From contig CAYGDE010000001.1 in assembly GCA_964348615.1 (NCBI GenBank), forward strand, positions 9,096 through 73,095: a stretch of DNA of 64,000 nt, written 5' to 3'. A program made the position numbers and the translations under genes. The notes under the pieces were generated by a model that saw only the letters and a program-made list of their open reading frames with translations, did no database searches and was not told the origin of the DNA. Of the stretch, positions 3,017-57,067 are shown piece by piece (position 1 is the first letter of the stretch; every line of letters starts with the position of its first letter). Source of the DNA: an uncultured Gammaproteobacteria bacterium (GTDB lineage: Bacteria; Patescibacteriota; Microgenomatia; Curtissbacterales; GWA2-41-24).

Positions 3017-3877
3017 ATGAAGCTAAAATTTGTTACGGTTTTAACTTTTGTGGTAATCTCCCAGATTTTTGCCAAACAAGCAAACTCACACCTCGAGGAC
3101 ACACAGCCATTTTTAAAAATCAACGGTCAAAACACAAGCACCTATTCCAGCCCACTCACCTCGAGTTTTTTTGATATCCCCGAAGACCAGGCACCACAAA
3201 ATTACGAAATAAACCAAAAGTTGGAGTTTGAAATAGACACGGAAGCTTTGCAGATTCCACATGAGATTGTTGCAAAAAGTACTTTTGACTGGGATTTTGG
3301 CGACGGCCAAAAAGGCCAGGGCACCAAAAGCACTCATACCTACACAAAAGCTGGTCCATATATTTTAAAAATCAATGTCACATATAACGACATCGATGCA
3401 CCTACTCTTTTGGAAACGACACTTATAAATGTACTTCCAGATGCCAGTTATCAGCTGCCTCAAGTTGAAATCTTAGTTAATGGCAAAGTTATAAAAGACG
3501 TTACCACCGATATTTTTAAAATCCCACACAACCAATCCATCGATTTTCAAGCCCAGGTTAAAAATTCACCATCTACCCAAATAGTCCAGTACACCTGGGA
3601 CTTTGGAGACAGCCAAAAAGCAAGTGGTCCTCATACCACACACGTATATAAAAAGAACCCAGACAGAACTCAATTTTTCCCAATAGTTCATGCAGTAGAC
3701 GAAAATGGGTTTTTTGCAGATGCCTATGTACAAATTACTGCTCAAAACGGCGCAGAAGAAAACACCAGCAGTTCAAGCACAAAAATAAAAGCCCCCATTT
3801 TAATAGTTGGTTTAATAATTGTCATAGTTTTAGCGTTTGCAGCCTTTACGGCTCTTTCCAAATTCAAAAAACGCTAA
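3017..3877 (+). CDS. secreted protein with two PKD-like repeats and a C-terminal TM anchor
   Basis: Signal peptide MKLKFVTVLTFVVISQIFA. Repeats WDFGDGQKGQGTKSTHTYTKAGPY and WDFGDSQKASGPHTTHVYKK. C-terminal hydrophobic stretch followed by KFKKR. Confidence 0.7.
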   Translation: MKLKFVTVLTFVVISQIFAKQANSHLEDTQPFLKINGQNTSTYSSPLTSSFFDIPEDQAPQNYEINQKLEFEIDTEALQIPHEIVAKSTFDWDFGDGQKGQGTKSTHTYTKAGPYILKINVTYNDIDAPTLLETTLINVLPDASYQLPQVEILVNGKVIKDVTTDIFKIPHNQSIDFQAQVKNSPSTQIVQYTWDFGDSQKASGPHTTHVYKKNPDRTQFFPIVHAVDENGFFADAYVQITAQNGAEENTSSSSTKIKAPILIVGLIIVIVLAFAAFTALSKFKKR

Positions 3878-6016: not shown

Positions 6017-7828
6017 TCAAACTGGTGTCACCAACTCTTCCGGTATATCAACCACAAACCTCGAAACCATGTTTGTAGAAGTTGTACCAAAATATAATCT
6101 TTGCGAAGCATACGAAAGATAAAGTTTTTCTTTTGCGCGCGTCATACCTACATAGGCCAGTCGCCGTTCTTCCTCAATTTGTGACGCATCTAACATTGAA
6201 CGGGAATGTGGGAACAAACCTTCTTCCATTCCAACAATAAAAACATTGTCAAATTCCAAACCTTTTGCGGCATGAATTGTCATTAATGTCACAAATTCAG
6301 ATTCATTAGATTCAAACGATTTGTCCGGCGAAACCTTGCCCTCCATTAGAGTAATGTTTTCCAAAAAATCCGAAAGATTATTAAATTCCGCCGCCACCGA
6401 TTTTAATTCCTTAACATTTTCAACCCGCATCAAGCCTTGTTCAGTGCCATCATCAATTACAAGCAAGTAATCAGTTGCTTCCAACACCTTATCAATCAAC
6501 TCCACAGGCTTCAAATTACTTTGATTATTTGACTCTCTATCTCTTTGACCCTCTAACTTCTCCCGCATTTCCAAAAACTTTTGAAATCTTCGCTTACCTA
6601 ATTTTTCCGCGCGCTTTTGGGCAACTGCATCCTTGGAGTTGGCAATCAAGCGCAAATAACAAACAACGTCTTTAATTTCTTTGCGTTCATAAAACCTTAC
6701 TCCACCATAAATTCGGTAAGCAATATTGGCATGCAAAAATGCTTCTTCAACGGTTCTCGATTGGGCATTGGTCCGGTATAAAATCGCAAAAGAAGACAGG
6801 GTTTTTCTGGAAGTTAAAATTTTGTTAACAATAAAATTCGCCTCATCCACTTCGTTGATTGCCCCATAAATACTTATTTTTTCACCCAAACCATTTTCGG
6901 TCCAAAGCTTTAAAACTGGATGCGAATTATTGTGGGAAATTATTTTGTTTGCCGCCGAAAGAATATTTTGGGTGCTTCTATAATTTTGTTCCAAATTAAA
7001 AACCACAGCGTTTGGGAAATCGTGTTCAAAATTTAAAATATTGCGAAAGTCTGCACCTCGAAAAGAATAAATTGCTTGTGAAGCATCACCAACGACTGTT
7101 AAATTACCATGCACACTGGAAAGCATTTTCGTTAAAATATACTGAGCCGTATTTACATCCTGGTATTCATCCACCAAAACATATTCAAATCTTCCGGCCC
7201 ATTTAGCCAAAACATTTGGGTTTTCTTGCAGAAGCTTAACTGTCATAAACAGCAAGTCATCAAAATCCAATGCATCCATTTGGGCAAGTGCTCTTTGGTA
7301 AATGTCATAAACCCTGGCAACAGTTTCTGCAAAATACCCATGCGCGAATTGTTGATAGTCGGAAGGCGATACAAGTTCGCTTTTAGCGGAAGAAATAGCA
7401 TTTAAAATTGAACTGGGTTTAAAGTTTTTGGTAGATATATCCGAATCTGTCATTATTTTTTTAACCAAAGAAACACTGTCGTCGTTGTCGTAAATTAGAA
7501 AGTTCTGGGCAATTCCAGAAAATTTACCGTCAATTCTTAAAAGCTTGGAACAAAAAGCATGAAATGTGCCAACATAAGGCGCTACTTTGCCCATCTTTTC
7601 TCCAACAAGCTTATGCACTCGTTCTTTCATTTCATTAGCTGCTTTGTTGGTAAAAGTAATAAGAAGGATATTTTCTGGCCTTACACCTTTTTCTATTAAG
7701 TGGGCTGCTTTATATGTTAAAACCCGCGTTTTACCGCTGCCGGCTCCAGCCAATATTAAAACCGGCCCATCGGTTTGCAAAGCCGCCTTTTTTTGTTGAG
7801 GATCCAAGTCGGAAAGTAATTTCATCAT
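6017..7828 (-). CDS. UvrD/PcrA/Rep-family ATP-dependent DNA helicase
   Basis: Walker A GAGSGKTRVL, VDEYQDVN, TIHAAKGLEFDNVF, RRLAYVGMTRAKEKL. Confidence 0.9.
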   Translation of the reverse strand: MMKLLSDLDPQQKKAALQTDGPVLILAGAGSGKTRVLTYKAAHLIEKGVRPENILLITFTNKAANEMKERVHKLVGEKMGKVAPYVGTFHAFCSKLLRIDGKFSGIAQNFLIYDNDDSVSLVKKIMTDSDISTKNFKPSSILNAISSAKSELVSPSDYQQFAHGYFAETVARVYDIYQRALAQMDALDFDDLLFMTVKLLQENPNVLAKWAGRFEYVLVDEYQDVNTAQYILTKMLSSVHGNLTVVGDASQAIYSFRGADFRNILNFEHDFPNAVVFNLEQNYRSTQNILSAANKIISHNNSHPVLKLWTENGLGEKISIYGAINEVDEANFIVNKILTSRKTLSSFAILYRTNAQSRTVEEAFLHANIAYRIYGGVRFYERKEIKDVVCYLRLIANSKDAVAQKRAEKLGKRRFQKFLEMREKLEGQRDRESNNQSNLKPVELIDKVLEATDYLLVIDDGTEQGLMRVENVKELKSVAAEFNNLSDFLENITLMEGKVSPDKSFESNESEFVTLMTIHAAKGLEFDNVFIVGMEEGLFPHSRSMLDASQIEEERRLAYVGMTRAKEKLYLSYASQRLYFGTTSTNMVSRFVVDIPEELVTPV

Positions 7829-12525: not shown

Positions 12526-14295
12526 GTGACAGCTGATATACTTACGCCTATGCACATTCGCAACTTTGCAATCATTGCCCACATAGACCACGGCAAATCA
12601 ACACTTGCCGACCGTATTATGGAAATTTGTGGTGCCGTAGGCGATAAGCACGACGCCCAACTTCTAGACAGTCTAGAGCTTGAACGTGAACATGGCATCA
12701 CAATCAAACTCAAAGCCATCCGTCTTAACTACCAACTACAAACTTCCAACTATATACTCAACCTCCTAGACACCCCTGGCCATGTAGATTTTTCTTATGA
12801 AGTCTCGCGTTCATTAGCGTCAGTTGAAGGTGCTGTTTTGATAGTTGATGCAACTCAAGGGGTACAGGCCCAGACGCTATCCAATTTTAATTTAGCGCTA
12901 GAGGCCGGTCTCACCATGATTCCGGTTGTCAACAAAATAGATTCCCCGCAAGCAGAACTGGCCAAAACGATTGATGAAATTAAAAACCTCGGTTTTAAAG
13001 ATGACGAGATCATAAAAGTCTCTGCAAAAACTGGAGAAAATGTTAGAAGCCTAATTGACGCCATCATCGAAAAAATTCCTCCCCCCAAATCTACAGGTAA
13101 TATACCCCAAGCGCTTATTTTTGATTCCTCCCTCGATCCGTATAAAGGGGTTATTGCAACTGTTCGTCTTTTTGGAGGTGAAATAAAAGTCTCAGACAAA
13201 ATATTTTTCCTAGCAACTGGTGCACAAGCCGAAGTCCTTCAGGTTGGCTATTTATCCCCCAAACCCACATACATAAAAAGCCTAACATCAGGGGAGCTTG
13301 GATTTATTGTTACAAATGTCAAAGACCTGCAAAAAGTCAAAGTAGGGGACACAATATCGCAACCAAAAGACCCTGCAAACCCTCTTCCAGGTTATCAAGA
13401 AGCAAAACCAGTAGTTTTCTTATCTCTTTTCCCGTCAGACACAGCAGATCTTGCAAAGCTAAAAGATGGGATCGAAAAGTTAAAATTAAACGACTCTTCC
13501 CTAAGCTTTTCTCCGGAATCGTCAACCAGCCTTGGTCAAGGATTTCGTGTTGGCTTCCTTGGCCTTTTGCATGCCCAAATCACGCAAGAGAGACTGGAAA
13601 GAGAATACAATTTAGATCTAATTGCAACATCCCCGTCTGTTAACTTCATTCAAGATGGACAAGTCATAAATAAGTCTTCAGAATTCGACCCCACTGCAAA
13701 AAATTTAGAAGAGCCTTATGCAAATGTGACAATTTTTGCACCTGAAAGGTTTTACGGAATAATTTCTAACTTAGTCCACGAAAGAAGGGGAGAAATCGGC
13801 AATATTGAAAATCTAGGGTCCTTGCAAAAAATCGAGGCAGAAATTCCGCTTTTAGAACTTTTAATTGGTTTTTACGACCAGCTTAAAAGTCTAACCTCGG
13901 GTTATGCATCCCTAGACTTCGAACTTTCAAACTATAAAAAAGCCGATCTTGTAAAGCTGGATATTTTGGTAAACCACGAACCCATAGAAGGCCTTTCGCA
14001 AGTTGTTCCCCGCGAAAAAGCCGAAGAAATTGGCAGCAAATTCACCCAAAAGTTAAAAGACGCAATCCCCAAGCAACAAATTCCAATCCCAATTCAAGCA
14101 GCAATTGGTGGCAAAATCATCGCACGCGAAACGATCGCTGGTTTTAGAAAAGACGTAACGGCAAAACTTTATGGCGGAGATGTCACCCGTAAAAATAAGT
14201 TACTGGAGAAACAGAAAAAAGGCAAAAAAAGAATGAGAAGGTTTGGAAGCGTCGATATTCCGCAAGAAGCCTTTTTAGCCGTACTAAAGATTTAA
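12526..14295 (+). CDS. lepA: elongation factor 4 (LepA); GTG at 12526 or ATG at 12550
   Basis: [33 protein letters not shown], and the C-terminal LYGGDVTRKNKLLEKQKKGKKRMRRFGSVDIPQEAFLAVL. Confidence 0.95.
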   Translation: MTADILTPMHIRNFAIIAHIDHGKSTLADRIMEICGAVGDKHDAQLLDSLELEREHGITIKLKAIRLNYQLQTSNYILNLLDTPGHVDFSYEVSRSLASVEGAVLIVDATQGVQAQTLSNFNLALEAGLTMIPVVNKIDSPQAELAKTIDEIKNLGFKDDEIIKVSAKTGENVRSLIDAIIEKIPPPKSTGNIPQALIFDSSLDPYKGVIATVRLFGGEIKVSDKIFFLATGAQAEVLQVGYLSPKPTYIKSLTSGELGFIVTNVKDLQKVKVGDTISQPKDPANPLPGYQEAKPVVFLSLFPSDTADLAKLKDGIEKLKLNDSSLSFSPESSTSLGQGFRVGFLGLLHAQITQERLEREYNLDLIATSPSVNFIQDGQVINKSSEFDPTAKNLEEPYANVTIFAPERFYGIISNLVHERRGEIGNIENLGSLQKIEAEIPLLELLIGFYDQLKSLTSGYASLDFELSNYKKADLVKLDILVNHEPIEGLSQVVPREKAEEIGSKFTQKLKDAIPKQQIPIPIQAAIGGKIIARETIAGFRKDVTAKLYGGDVTRKNKLLEKQKKGKKRMRRFGSVDIPQEAFLAVLKI

Positions 14296-14338
14296 GGTGC
14301 GCCGCGAAGTTTATCCCGAGCGAAGGCGAGGGAGATCT

Positions 14339-14383
14339 GTCGATATACCTCAGGAGGCCTTTCTTGCAGTCCTGAAAATTTAG
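14339..14383 (+). repeat. diverged second copy of the last 15 codons plus stop of lepA (VDIPQEAFLAVLKI*), following a 43-nt GC-rich spacer
   Basis: 14251-14295 and 14339-14383 encode an identical peptide but differ at 13 codons, all synonymous. Confidence 0.8.
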
Positions 14384-53882: not shown

Positions 53883-54191
53883 ATGCCAAAAGGTAGAATT
53901 CGAGTTAAATTAAAAGCATACGACGGCAGGGTCATCGACCAAGCGTGTCGTGACATTATAAACACTGGTCTTTCTACCGGGGCGAAAATCTCTGGTCCAA
54001 TTCCACTGCCAACCAAAATTTCAAAGCTCACTGTTTTAACCAGTCCGCATACCGACAAAGATGCCAGAGAACAATTTGAAATGCGAGTGCACAAAAGGTT
54101 AATCGACATAATCGAACCGACAAATAAAACAATCGATTCGCTTACTCATCTCGAACTACCGGCAGGAGTAGATATAGAGCTCAAAATGTAA
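53883..54191 (+). CDS. rpsJ: 30S ribosomal protein S10
   Basis: IRVKLKAYD...LPTK...[18 protein letters not shown]. Confidence 0.95.
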
Positions 54192-54341
54192 TTGTTATAT
54201 TGCTGTATTGTTATTTTGCTCAAAAAACAATTTAACAATAGAACAATTTAACAATATATTTTGGTGGGATTCCTGAAAACCTGACTAACCTCAGCGCAAT
54301 CTAAGGAAGCCTACTTTTTTGTTACTTTAAAGGAAATTATT

Positions 54342-55100
54342 ATGCCGACCATACTTGGAATAAAAGGAAACATGACAAACCGCTACAGTTCGCGGGGTCT
54401 TAGGGTACCTGTAACCATTGTACAAGCGAGTCCAAATACAGTCGTTGAAGTCAAAAAAGATAAAATTTTGGTTGGTCTTGGTGTTACAAAAAAGATCAAA
54501 AAACCTCAAAATGGCATTGTTACCAAAATTGGTCTTATGCCAAGATATTTAAAAGAAATTAAAAAAGACTCCGCCGCAGGCGGAGAAATTAAAGTCGGCG
54601 ACAAAATAACAGTTGCCGCGTTTGCGCTTGGAGATGCAGTTTCTGTAACAGGTACCACCAAAGGTCATGGTTTTGCAGGTGGTGTAAAAAGATGGGGTTT
54701 CCATGGAGGTCCAAAAACTCACGGGCAATCCGACAGACACAGAGCACCAGGGTCAATAGGTCAAGGAACCACACCAGGAAGAGTTTACAAAGGAAAACAC
54801 ATGGCAGGCCATTTTGGCAATGTACAAATTACAACAACCGGTTTGGAAGTAATTGCAATAGACGCGGCTAATAATTTGCTTCTAATAAAAGGTGCAGTGC
54901 CCGGTGCAAAAAATGGGTTTTTAATAGTAGAAAAAACAGGCAAAGTTAAAAAATACGTAGCCCCGCCAGAAGAAAAACCAAAGGAAGATGAAAAAGAGTC
55001 AAATGAGTCAAAGGGAGAAGAAAAAGAGAACAAAAAAGAGGAAAAACAAGAAGTAAAAGAAGAGAAGATTGAAGAAAAAAAGGAAGAGGTTAAGGAGTAA
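54342..55100 (+). CDS. rplC: 50S ribosomal protein L3, with a K/E-rich C-terminal extension
   Basis: GHGFAGGVKRWGFHGGPKTHGQSDRHRAPGSIG; about 50-aa KE-rich tail. Confidence 0.95.
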   Translation: MPTILGIKGNMTNRYSSRGLRVPVTIVQASPNTVVEVKKDKILVGLGVTKKIKKPQNGIVTKIGLMPRYLKEIKKDSAAGGEIKVGDKITVAAFALGDAVSVTGTTKGHGFAGGVKRWGFHGGPKTHGQSDRHRAPGSIGQGTTPGRVYKGKHMAGHFGNVQITTTGLEVIAIDAANNLLLIKGAVPGAKNGFLIVEKTGKVKKYVAPPEEKPKEDEKESNESKGEEKENKKEEKQEVKEEKIEEKKEEVKE

Positions 55101-55102
55101 AA

Positions 55103-55876
55103 ATGGCAGAAAAAAGAGCAGTTAAAACTAAAACAATATCAAGTCCAAAATCGACAGAACCAGCGGTTACAAAAAAGTCCTCTCTGTCATTGCGAGCGAA
55201 GAGAAGCAATCTATCCCCTGCTGTCATTCCCGCAAAAGCGGGAATCCAGAAAGCTAGCGGTCTCACCGTTCCGGTTTTCGACATAAATGGCAAAAGCGCA
55301 GGAACTATTACTTTGCCAAAAGAAATCTTTGGACAAAAAGTGGGGAAAAATCTTCTTGCCCAAGCAATTCGCGTCTACCAGGCAAATAGTATTGCCCACA
55401 CTGCTCATACCAAAACCCGAGGCGAAGTAAGAGGCGGAGGAAAAAAACCTTGGCGCCAAAAAGGCACTGGTAGGGCAAGAGCAGGGTCAAGCAGGTCCCC
55501 TCTTTGGGTTGGTGGCGGTACAACTTTTGGTCCGAGGAAAAATGAAAAAGAACTAAAACTACCCCAAAAAATGCGCAAAAAAGCTCTCATCTACGCTCTT
55601 TCCGAAAAAACACAATCAAATCAAATAAAAATCATTTCTGGCATCGAAAAAATCGAACCAAAGACAAAAATCATTTCTAATCTACTTAGTAAGTTAGAAA
55701 CAAAAGGGCGATCTTTATTGGTAACCTCGCAAAATCCGCCAGCTGGCGGAATTAAATTAGCATCAAGGAACATACCAAATCTTAAATTAACTGCCCCTCA
55801 AAACCTTAACGCTTACGAAGTTTTAAAAAATAACCAAATATTAATATCAAAAGAAGCAGTTGCACTTTTTAAATAA
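55103..55876 (+). CDS. rplD: 50S ribosomal protein L4, with an N-terminal extension containing an in-frame GC-rich palindromic insertion
   Basis: L4 core: [31 protein letters not shown]. The N-terminal about 53 aa include [26 protein letters not shown]. Confidence 0.95.
55186..55246 (+). repeat. two tandem GTCATT-[hairpin]-AATC palindromic units inside rplD; the second is ATTCCCGC-AAAA-GCGGGAAT (ATTCCC-N8-GGGAAT)
   Basis: Unit 1 at 55186-55211 (ATTGC/GCAAT stem, loop GAGCGAAGAGAA); unit 2 at 55223-55246 (perfect 8-bp stem). Locally GC-rich in an AT-rich gene; reading frame preserved. Confidence 0.8.
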
Positions 55877-56242
55877 ATGAAAATCATAAACTTTATCAAA
55901 AGCCCAATACTTTCCGAAAAAGCCTACAAACAAATGGAAAAAGGTGCTTACACGTTTCTCGTTGAAAAAGGTGCAAATAAAGCAAATATCAAAAAGGCAA
56001 TTGCAAGCCATTTTTCCGTAAAGGTAAAAAAAGTTAATATCACGATGATGCAGCCAAAAACCAAAAAAATCGCCAGAACAAGAAAAACAACAACTGTTGG
56101 AGGGGGTAAAAAAGCAACTGTTTGGCTTGAAAAAGGCCAGACAATTACCAACCTTTTACCAAAGTCAGAAAGCAAAAAGCCAACTAAAAAAAGCGGTGAA
56201 AAGGAAATAGAAAAATCATCGGTGGAAGGAAGGGAAGGATAA
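55877..56242 (+). CDS. rplW: 50S ribosomal protein L23
   Basis: Position and similarity. Confidence 0.9.
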   Translation: MKIINFIKSPILSEKAYKQMEKGAYTFLVEKGANKANIKKAIASHFSVKVKKVNITMMQPKTKKIARTRKTTTVGGGKKATVWLEKGQTITNLLPKSESKKPTKKSGEKEIEKSSVEGREG

Positions 56243-57067
56243 ATGCCTGTTAAAACTTATCGGGGCGGAACCCCAAGCCAAAGATTTAAATCGACGTTGG
56301 TGTTTGGAGACATCACCAAAACCGTACCAGAAAAATCATTAATTGGCCGAATTTTAAGAACTGGTGGCAGGACCAACGGAAAACTTACTGTTCGAGGAAT
56401 TAGCGGTGGCGCAAAAAGAAATTTTAGATATATCGATTTCAAACGTGACAAAAGAGGAATAATTGCAAAAGTAGCTGCAATTGAATACGACCCAAACCGC
56501 ACAGCCAATATTGCACTTTTGCACTACAAAGACGGCGAAAAAAGGTATATACTTGCGCCTCTGGGCTTAAAAGTTGGAACAGAGATTCAATCTTCTGACT
56601 CAGTTGCAGTTAAACCAGGCAATTCTATGCCTCTTGGCAAAATGCCAGTCGGAACAGTAGTTCACAACGTAGAGCTTACTCCGGGTAAAGGCGGCCAAAT
56701 AGTGAGAAGTGCCGGCGCAGGAGCCATTGTTGCAGCCAAAGAAGGCAACTGGGTACACTTGAAGCTTCCTTCCAAAGAAGTAAGGAAAATACACGACACC
56801 TGCTTTGCCACAATTGGCCAAGTTGGGAACATCGATTGGAAAAACGTAGTTTTAGGTAAAGCTGGAACGTCAAGGCATATGGGTAGGAAAGGTAAAGTTC
56901 GAGGTGTTGCACAGGATCCACGGTCTCACCCACACGGTGGAGGAGAAGCAAAGTCTGGTACTGGTATGCATCCAAAAACTAAGTGGGGCAAACCAGCCAT
57001 GGGTAACAGAACTAGAAACAAAAACAAACCGTCAAGCCGATTCATTTTGGTAAGGAGAAAGAAATAA
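56243..57067 (+). CDS. rplB: 50S ribosomal protein L2
   Basis: GRNxx[11 protein letters not shown]. Confidence 0.97.

Follow-up and report, generated by a model that had tools for sequence, protein, structure and literature searches.

Probable dispersed hairpin repeats in frame within the ribosomal protein L4 gene of a Patescibacteria genome

Evaluating a 64,000-nt stretch of contig CAYGDE010000001.1 (assembly GCA_964348615.1, placed by GTDB in the Curtissbacterales; hereafter the window, whose positions are used below), we found that the 5' part of rplD, the gene for ribosomal protein L4 (uL4), probably holds two dispersed hairpin repeats of the repetitive extragenic palindromic (REP) type, non-autonomous and most likely tolerated as neutral decoration of the protein's N-terminal tail. 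The two units, termed U1 and U2, lie on the same strand and in frame in rplD, where they jointly encode L4 residues 28-49 (~22 residues). The features of this region are as follows.

55092..55097, + strand: AAGGAG resembling a Shine-Dalgarno sequence, 5 nt before the rplD ATG and sharing bases with the 3' end of rplC (sequence inspection)
55103..55876, + strand: rplD (ribosomal protein uL4), 257 aa (open reading frame [ORF]; Pfam PF00573 and L4 names on homologues; solved uL4 chains matched at E = 3e-40)
55103..55261, + strand: Lys-rich lineage-specific L4 N-terminal extension, residues 1-53 (solved uL4 alignment, AlphaFold2, orthologue length range)
55185..55214, + strand: U1, TGTC-ATTGC-GAGCGAAGAGAA-GCAAT-CTAT, residues 28-38 (SLRAKRSNL) (family recurrence, stem covariation)
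55222..55249, + strand: U2, TGTC-ATTCCCGC-AAAA-GCGGGAAT-CCAG, residues 40-49 (VIPAKAGIQ) (SRM pattern, hairpin, genome scan, table of intragenic CGTC-1 copies)
55090..55293, - strand: spurious antisense ORF, 67 aa, opened by U1 and U2 (ORF list)

Identity of the two units and their place in L4

The initial annotation, made from the DNA letters, had singled out a GC-rich block in the N-terminal extension of rplD, built of two same-strand units that leave the reading frame open, and the sequence bore this out. GC content across 55181-55260 is 52.5% vs 39% in the remainder of rplD (raised, not extreme, with no 30-nt window of at least 67% GC inside the block), and the frame runs on without a stop through the 257-aa ORF. 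Equally well founded were the proposed opposite-strand spurious ORF, whose 67 aa include both WIPAFAGMT and LLLFARND, and the suggestion of a host resembling the candidate phyla radiation (CPR), the nearest L4 homologues being those of Candidatus Curtissbacteria and other Patescibacteria. Two more assemblies, independent of this one, contain the identical L4 protein, insert included, which excludes an assembly artefact. Two other assemblies of this strain have contig breaks in rplW or shortly past it, directly downstream of rplD (e.g., L333 ends 241 nt after rplD, L334 is a 1.9-kb contig and L210 begins in rplW), which may reflect strain variation or a repeat there, and same-strain contigs from other assemblies added only ribosomal-operon genes and no tagged hairpins.

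Neither core, GTCATTGCGAGCGAAGAGAAGCAATC for U1 (55186-55211) or GTCATTCCCGCAAAAGCGGGAATC for U2 (55223-55246), is present more than once in the window even at up to 3 mismatches, and neither was matched in any of 100 dinucleotide shuffles. Elsewhere in the window, a search that covered extra copies, repeats in direct or inverted orientation and islands of high GC revealed nothing related except a block after lepA (see below), so that the repeat status of both units rests on other genomes. An Rfam scan of 54000-56500 returned no match. Among other classes of element, a CRISPR repeat, an integron attC site, a dif site, an intein and an intron found no support from sequence or searches, and a terminator was set aside since no T-run follows the U2 hairpin.

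By its sequence, U2 is a canonical CGTC-1 REP, that is, a dRS3 / NTS-type SRM. Di Nocera, De Gregorio & Rocco (2013, PMC3733652) define CGTC-tagged REPs by a CGTC tag or its variants TGTC and CCTC, a stem of 8-9 bp that starts with AT and closes a 4-5-nt loop, and a tail reading CCA, and their CGTC-1 class has been equated with neisserial dRS3 and with RPE-6, a Rickettsia palindromic element (RPE) of Rickettsia conorii (PMC3733652). U2 possesses the TGTC variant at 55222-55225, a perfect 8-bp stem whose first pairs are A-T and T-A, a 4-nt loop and a CCA(G) tail at 55246-55249. It also follows the dRS3 formula ATTCCC-N8-GGGAAT at 55226-55245, the perfect hairpin that the initial annotation had described for the second unit. 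Folded as single-stranded DNA, U2 is strong (-10.2 kcal/mol, z = -6.2), with none of 200 shuffles equalling it.

Searching the window with the SRM pattern HGTCWY N0-2 YYVSBRH N0-5 WNVSBRG N0-2 RNCYNB (Chenal et al. 2025, PMC11893778) gave a single match, at 55222-55249 (U2), with shuffles averaging 0.18 matches. Against the strict NTS consensus CGTCATTCCCGCGMAVGCGGGAATCYRG, searched at up to 1 mismatch, U2 fails with 2 (T for C at position 1 and A for G at the first loop base), and it retains the two features critical to the Ssn nuclease, GTC for cleavage and the C after the palindrome for binding. CGTC-1 repeats are defined in addition by many copies, mostly in head-to-head dimers; U2 is single, with no inverted partner within the 64-kb window. 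The analogy to dRS3 and RPE drawn in the initial annotation thus becomes an identity for U2, by the CGTC-1 definition, the dRS3 formula and the SRM pattern.

The encoded peptide leads to the same family. VIPAKAGI, the peptide of U2, is tabulated as the product of intragenic CGTC-1 copies in two genes, Rickettsia conorii RC0809 and Chlorobium chlorochromatii Cag_0178, and a Micavibrio DNA polymerase I is listed with SIPAKAGIQ...DSRLRGNA (Di Nocera et al. 2013, PMC3733652). A literature search with the encoded peptides returned only unrelated primer matches.

U1 is, to judge from its tag and loop core, a member of a second, separate TGTC-tagged family. Two tandem hairpin units had been claimed, and both are present; a stable U1 hairpin did not hold up, its 5-bp stem and 12-nt loop folding at -2.2 kcal/mol (z = 0.14), no better than shuffles. 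Its significance lies in family recurrence rather than thermodynamics. U1 is a member of the family GTCATTGCGAG-CGAAGCGA-AGCAATC that has decayed a little, with one loop change, AGCGA to AGAGA, and its likeness to the CGTC/SRM class stops at the TGTC tag, a stem beginning with AT and the C that follows the stem. Nor is it the same as CGTC-4/RPE-4, whose peptides are of the WIPWSNHGMT type (PMC3733652).

Members of the U1 family take the form GTCAT-NNN-GAGCGAAGCGA(A)-N'N'N'-ATC, with tag and loop core conserved. Across loci that were not selected for U1, the inner triplets are complementary in every distinct element and come in four kinds (TGC/GCA, TCT/AGA, CCT/AGG and TCC/GGA), a covariation that argues for a real hairpin family despite its weak nearest-neighbour energies. 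Like U1 itself, the family falls outside the SRM pattern and the definitions of CGTC-1 to CGTC-4. Literature searches for the U1 DNA sequence returned no paper containing it and no published family name, only unrelated primer matches.

Both units lie in a part of L4 that solved bacterial structures do not share. The alignment with solved bacterial uL4 starts at about residue 55 of L4, which corresponds to about residue 3 of the solved chains, so residues 1-53 form an extra N-terminal tail. An AlphaFold2 model, run on L4 with 51 orthologues, gave residues 1-53 as coil (predicted local distance difference test scores of 50-56) and a confident fold from residue 54, placing U1 and U2 outside the conserved L4 fold, in predicted coil. 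Rich in Lys, the tail varies widely in length: some orthologues lack it, others reach about 100 residues, and nearly all fall between 20 and 100.

Within this tail, the repeat units are very likely translated, as the start codons suggest. Codon 1 of rplD is an ATG, with AAGGAG 5 nt and the rplC stop 2 nt ahead of it. Besides codon 1, an in-frame start that would leave the conserved first strand intact exists only at codon 30, where U1 supplies a TTG; past U2 the next ones, codons 71 and 80, both fall inside the conserved core. Because AAGGAG supports codon 1 as the start, both units would be read, and U2 would be read under either start since only codons 1 and 30 keep the conserved strand.

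Occurrence in L4 orthologues and in other genomes

Alignment of rplD orthologues, the check by which an insertion was to be recognised, revealed units that are present or absent and that sit at differing sites. REP-signature peptides, of types that include SLR... and SSSE.K, were found in the tail of 14 of the 120 closest L4 orthologues and in none of the other 106. They start anywhere between positions 7 and 44 and run in either orientation, and this variety of position and orientation points to recurrent independent insertions. Median tail length is 51 residues with such peptides vs 37 without. The series P0012, P0032 and P0045 possesses zero, one and two units, one gain amounting to 36 nt. 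As in the RPE type of insertion, then, the frame is kept in a protein of known function, and orthologues exist with and without units.

At the DNA level, tagged hairpins are present in the rplD 5' region of L121, L122, L123, L134, L212 and L213, and absent from L214. U1 is positionally equivalent in L121, L122 and the window and is followed in all three by a shared CCG(C/T)TGTG..CAAAAAC, so that U1 would predate the divergence of these three. Relative to U1, the U2-type unit is on the 3' side in the window and on the 5' side in L122, with the unusual AAAA loop in both, which marks the two as separate insertions of one lineage-specific U2 subtype. A metagenome scan for L4 returned mostly distant high-GC L4 loci of 36-48% identity, one of which, L134, again has a U1-type unit in the tail. 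In L123, a related ribosomal operon, a head-to-head pair of TGTC-tagged hairpins with ATCCT and ATTCT stems lies in the S19-L22 spacer (3661-3740), indicating that the repeats also enter intergenic parts of the ribosomal operon.

To place U2 among other genomes, we scanned one genome per species with the pattern GTCATTCCCGC-N3-6-GCGGGAATC and found the exact U2 core, a 24-mer, at at least 120 loci in most bacterial phyla. The matches listed include Proteobacteria, Bacteroidota, Chloroflexota, Planctomycetota, Nitrospirota, Verrucomicrobiota and several CPR lineages, a Nanoarchaeota metagenome-assembled genome (MAG) from DPANN, and cultured isolates of Neisseria lactamica, Povalibacter, Pedobacter, Azospirillum, Massilia, Sphingomonas and Devosia; many of the matches listed form +/- pairs 30-100 nt apart. 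Some copies are in frame elsewhere than in L4. A P-type ATPase of a Magasanikiibacteriota MAG (L106 5713-7998) possesses a U2-type element mid-gene at 7687-7710, which adds DSRLRGNDN after ...QKSAVDYL, and a DNA methyltransferase-like ORF of a Nanoarchaeota MAG (L089 965-2716, element 1511-1534) possesses an in-frame pair encoding SCFRRNDA...VIPAQAGIQ. One more in-frame U2-type copy lies under an ileS annotation on a Sphingopyxis plasmid.

The U1 family is also widespread: its canonical form, GTCATTGCGAGCGAAGNGAAGCAATC, was found in 109 viral contigs and in Alphaproteobacteria, Zixibacteria, Bacteroidales and cyanobacterial plasmids. U1-family loci include L011 2927-3005, L012, L043, L078, L093, L123 1116-1141, L134 9964-9997 and the viral L215-L322, the units sometimes forming head-to-head dimers. 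In-frame U1-type units also lie near the N-termini of conserved phage proteins (…HVIARSAATKQSQ… and …HVIARSEATKQSQ…, at L215 7011-7439 and L301 1121-1657), each site with about 10 related IMG/VR contigs that otherwise encode phage structural genes, which extends the family to phage genomes. Beside U1-type units neither an Ssn gene nor any other recurrent small gene was found, the genes recurring near U1 in viral contigs being phage structural, and in these contigs the search for U1-type pairs bracketing a gene returned only gene-less repeat arrays. The U1 family may, on a rather unlikely reading, be mobilised by a partner enzyme distinct from Ssn.

Outside the rplD block, three further features of the window bear on repeats or on ribosomal tails.

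14296..14338, + strand: GC-rich block after the lepA stop, a decayed U1-family unit TTTATCCC-GAGCGAAGGCGA-GGGAGATCT (loop core as in U1, no GTC tag)
14339..14383, + strand: out-of-frame second copy of the last 14 lepA codons and stop (original at 14251-14295)
54950-55100 (rplC) and 56180-56242 (rplW): charged C-terminal tails

The initial annotation had reported that the loop motif of the rplD block recurs after lepA. The recurrence itself stands, with GAGCGAAG found again at 14318 in a REP-like context (ATCCC-GAGCGAAGGCGA-GGGAGATC); two copies alone are not significant, since 38 of 100 shuffles reach that number. The two lepA ends, separated by the 43-nt GC-rich block, are identical at 34 of 45 nt, and all 11 differences are synonymous, so that both encode VDIPQEAFLAVLKI*. 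An independent assembly (L332) has the duplication and block as well, differing by 1 nt. Because the divergence is purely synonymous, the sequence suggests that one lepA end came from a diverged relative, perhaps carried in with the repeat.

The L3 and L23 proteins possess Lys/Glu-rich low-complexity C-terminal tails (e.g., ...PPEEKPKEDEKESNESKGEEKENKKEEKQEVKEEKIEEKKEEVKE), and together with the L4 tail they suggest that ribosomal proteins of this lineage generally bear charged terminal extensions.

The Ssn nuclease and the competing explanations

Work on the NTS, a longer form of dRS3, supplies a candidate enzyme for U2. The NTS (CGTCATTCCCGCGMAVGCGGGAATCYRG) and the SRM hairpins akin to it border the gene for Ssn, a small GIY-YIG nuclease; its in vitro binding is confined to hairpins in single-stranded DNA, its cut falls a few nucleotides upstream, and the post-palindrome C is critical for binding, as are the three bases before the palindrome (GTC) for cleavage; the NTS/Ssn pair modulates transformation in Neisseria, and the order repeat, ssn gene, repeat was pointed out as resembling an insertion sequence (Chenal et al. 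2025, PMC11893778).

Among the matches listed for the U2-selected loci, two possess Ssn genes (L041 and L096). A protein search with the NTS-flanked Methylotenera Ssn (L041) returned Methylophilaceae only and was uninformative for CPR; CPR homologues were retrieved with a consensus-style probe sequence of our own design, which found Ssn-family proteins in Candidatus Taylorbacteria, Paceibacterota and others. The Taylorbacteria Ssn is 61% identical to the NTS-flanked Methylotenera Ssn, and in both CPR lineages TGTCATTCCCGCGAAAGCGGGAATCCA-type units, tagged TGTC and ending in CCA like U2, stand on either side of ssn. The geometry of repeat, ssn and inverted repeat was seen at 26 further Ssn loci, and Ssn loci carry only units with 8-9-bp stems.

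As to the surroundings of these genes, the Paceibacterota ssn-family gene and its flanking repeats lie between ruvB and ruvC (L330 1265-1555). The Taylorbacteria gene lies within a PrgI / TraC-like / TraG-like (type IV secretion-like) cluster (L324 3001-3285), which also contains six more U2-type units and, by some gene calls, a second truncated GIY-YIG fragment.

Combining these observations, we propose that U1 and U2 are non-autonomous selfish or recombinogenic DNA rather than L4 sequence and would have landed in the 5' part of rplD, probably at different times. U2 would be the single-stranded recognition hairpin of an Ssn-family GIY-YIG nuclease, and both units would be translated as a neutral decoration of about 22 residues. 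They presumably persist because each adds a multiple of three bases in a stop-free frame to a disordered, length-variable tail outside the L4 fold. Five of the six frames of U2 and five of the six of U1 are free of stops, which would make the survival of in-frame copies common. At rplD the units are most likely neutral passengers. That their dispersal was driven by an Ssn nuclease encoded elsewhere in this genome, or formerly in it, is possible, with a chance somewhat short of even. We regard it as rather unlikely that the L4 tail is a preferred landing pad for REPs, that REP insertions are a main route of its growth and diversification and that REP peptides would thereby be built into ribosomes.

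Several observations weigh against this account. The nearest orthologue is only 75% identical, which leaves no clean empty site and no exact boundaries or target duplication, and the 21-nt gain inferred for U2 against L121 is alignment-dependent. With one strict SRM in 64 kb, the genome may hold few copies. Neither a motif search of the window nor tblastn with the Methylotenera Ssn turned up an Ssn gene (GIY-YIG of the cd10448 type) or another GIY-YIG gene. U1 fails both the stem and loop sizes of CGTC-1 to CGTC-4 (8-9 bp and 4-5 nt) and the SRM pattern, and in ~1 Mb of sequence no Ssn gene lies beside any U1-type unit.

We weighed three other explanations for the units. One is that they are a selected cis-acting element, either an mRNA hairpin for the S10 operon or a maintained Ssn cut site that limits recombination or transformation. 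The strong U2 hairpin lies on the coding strand and hence in the mRNA too, REPs have often been proposed as RNA elements (PMC3733652), NTS/Ssn acts on transformation in Neisseria (PMC11893778), and the L4 5' region is repeatedly occupied among relatives. Against this, the position, orientation and family of the units vary among orthologues, with 106 of 120 possessing none, U1 is decayed and folds like its shuffles, the hairpin has neither an Rfam match nor a T-run after it, and the 64-kb window is free of ssn; on this evidence, selection for a cis-acting role is quite improbable. Still less probable, indeed very improbable, is that the units are non-coding, with L4 starting downstream and the repeats forming a 5' leader, a concern that arises since many N-terminal REPs may be extragenic through wrong start calls (Di Nocera et al., PMC3733652). 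Here the next starts, codons 71 and 80, would cut into the core conserved from residue 54-55, codon 1 is preceded by AAGGAG at 5 nt and by the rplC stop at 2 nt, and nearly all orthologues possess a Lys-rich tail of 20-100 residues.

The remaining explanation, that the stretch is ordinary lineage-specific coding sequence, palindromic by chance, or else an assembly chimera, draws on the single copy of each unit in the window and is almost certainly wrong. Neither unit arose in 100 shuffles, related units are present in orthologues from independent samples, and this origin is effectively refuted by the at least 120 loci of unrelated phyla with the exact 24-mer core and by the identical gene in two other assemblies. 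The reading of U1 and U2 as dispersed repeats that are neutral passengers in the L4 tail therefore remains the one we favor.

On this reading, the CGTC-1 class and in-frame intragenic copies encoding VIPAKAGI were already known (PMC3733652). What is new is that the host is one of the Patescibacteria, that the gene encodes an essential ribosomal protein, a kind not listed in the earlier table of intragenic REPs, that the L4 tail is used recurrently, and that a companion U1 family, for which no published name was found, accompanies U2. CGTC-REP/NTS-type repeats and, by association, the Ssn system are thereby extended to Patescibacteria. Repeated independent occupancy of a short, easily aligned L4 tail offers natural before-and-after pairs for studying how such repeats are copied. 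For annotation, peptides such as LLRFARND should be taken as marks of repeat DNA and not of protein homology, and the antisense ORF as spurious.

Comparison with known systems

Compared with published CGTC-1 repeats, U2 differs in its host, since Patescibacteria/CPR are not among the five phyla covered in PMC3733652, and in its gene, since the accessible part of the supplementary tables of intragenic REPs in PMC3733652 lists no ribosomal protein gene. It differs further in being a singleton rather than a head-to-head dimer, at low copy number in the window. Set beside the NTS/SRM system, the likeness is that CPR ssn genes are flanked by U2-type units; the differences are that U2 has 2 mismatches to the strict NTS consensus vs the 1 allowed in PMC11893778, and that coding-sequence copies and CPR hosts are not discussed in PMC11893778.

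With the RPEs the units share their nature as short palindromic repeats in frame in genes of proteins of known function. Ogata et al. (2000/2002) are said to have described RPEs in frame in protein genes, often in surface or terminal regions, and RPE-1 is reportedly much longer, at about 100-150 bp. An N-terminal RPE-1 has been reported as expressed in vivo (PMC3733652). The equivalence of U2 to an RPE is taken from the statement that CGTC-1 equals RPE-6 (PMC3733652).

GTAG-tagged REPs and REPINs, which are mobilised by RAYT (IS200/IS605-like) transposases, differ in their tag (GTAG vs CGTC/TGTC) and in their enzyme, an HUH tyrosine transposase vs a GIY-YIG nuclease, and Ssn is not known to have transposition activity. 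The likeness lies in the design: in both systems small tagged hairpins, often in inverted dimers, flank a single-copy gene, and a dedicated enzyme recognises the hairpin in single-stranded form.

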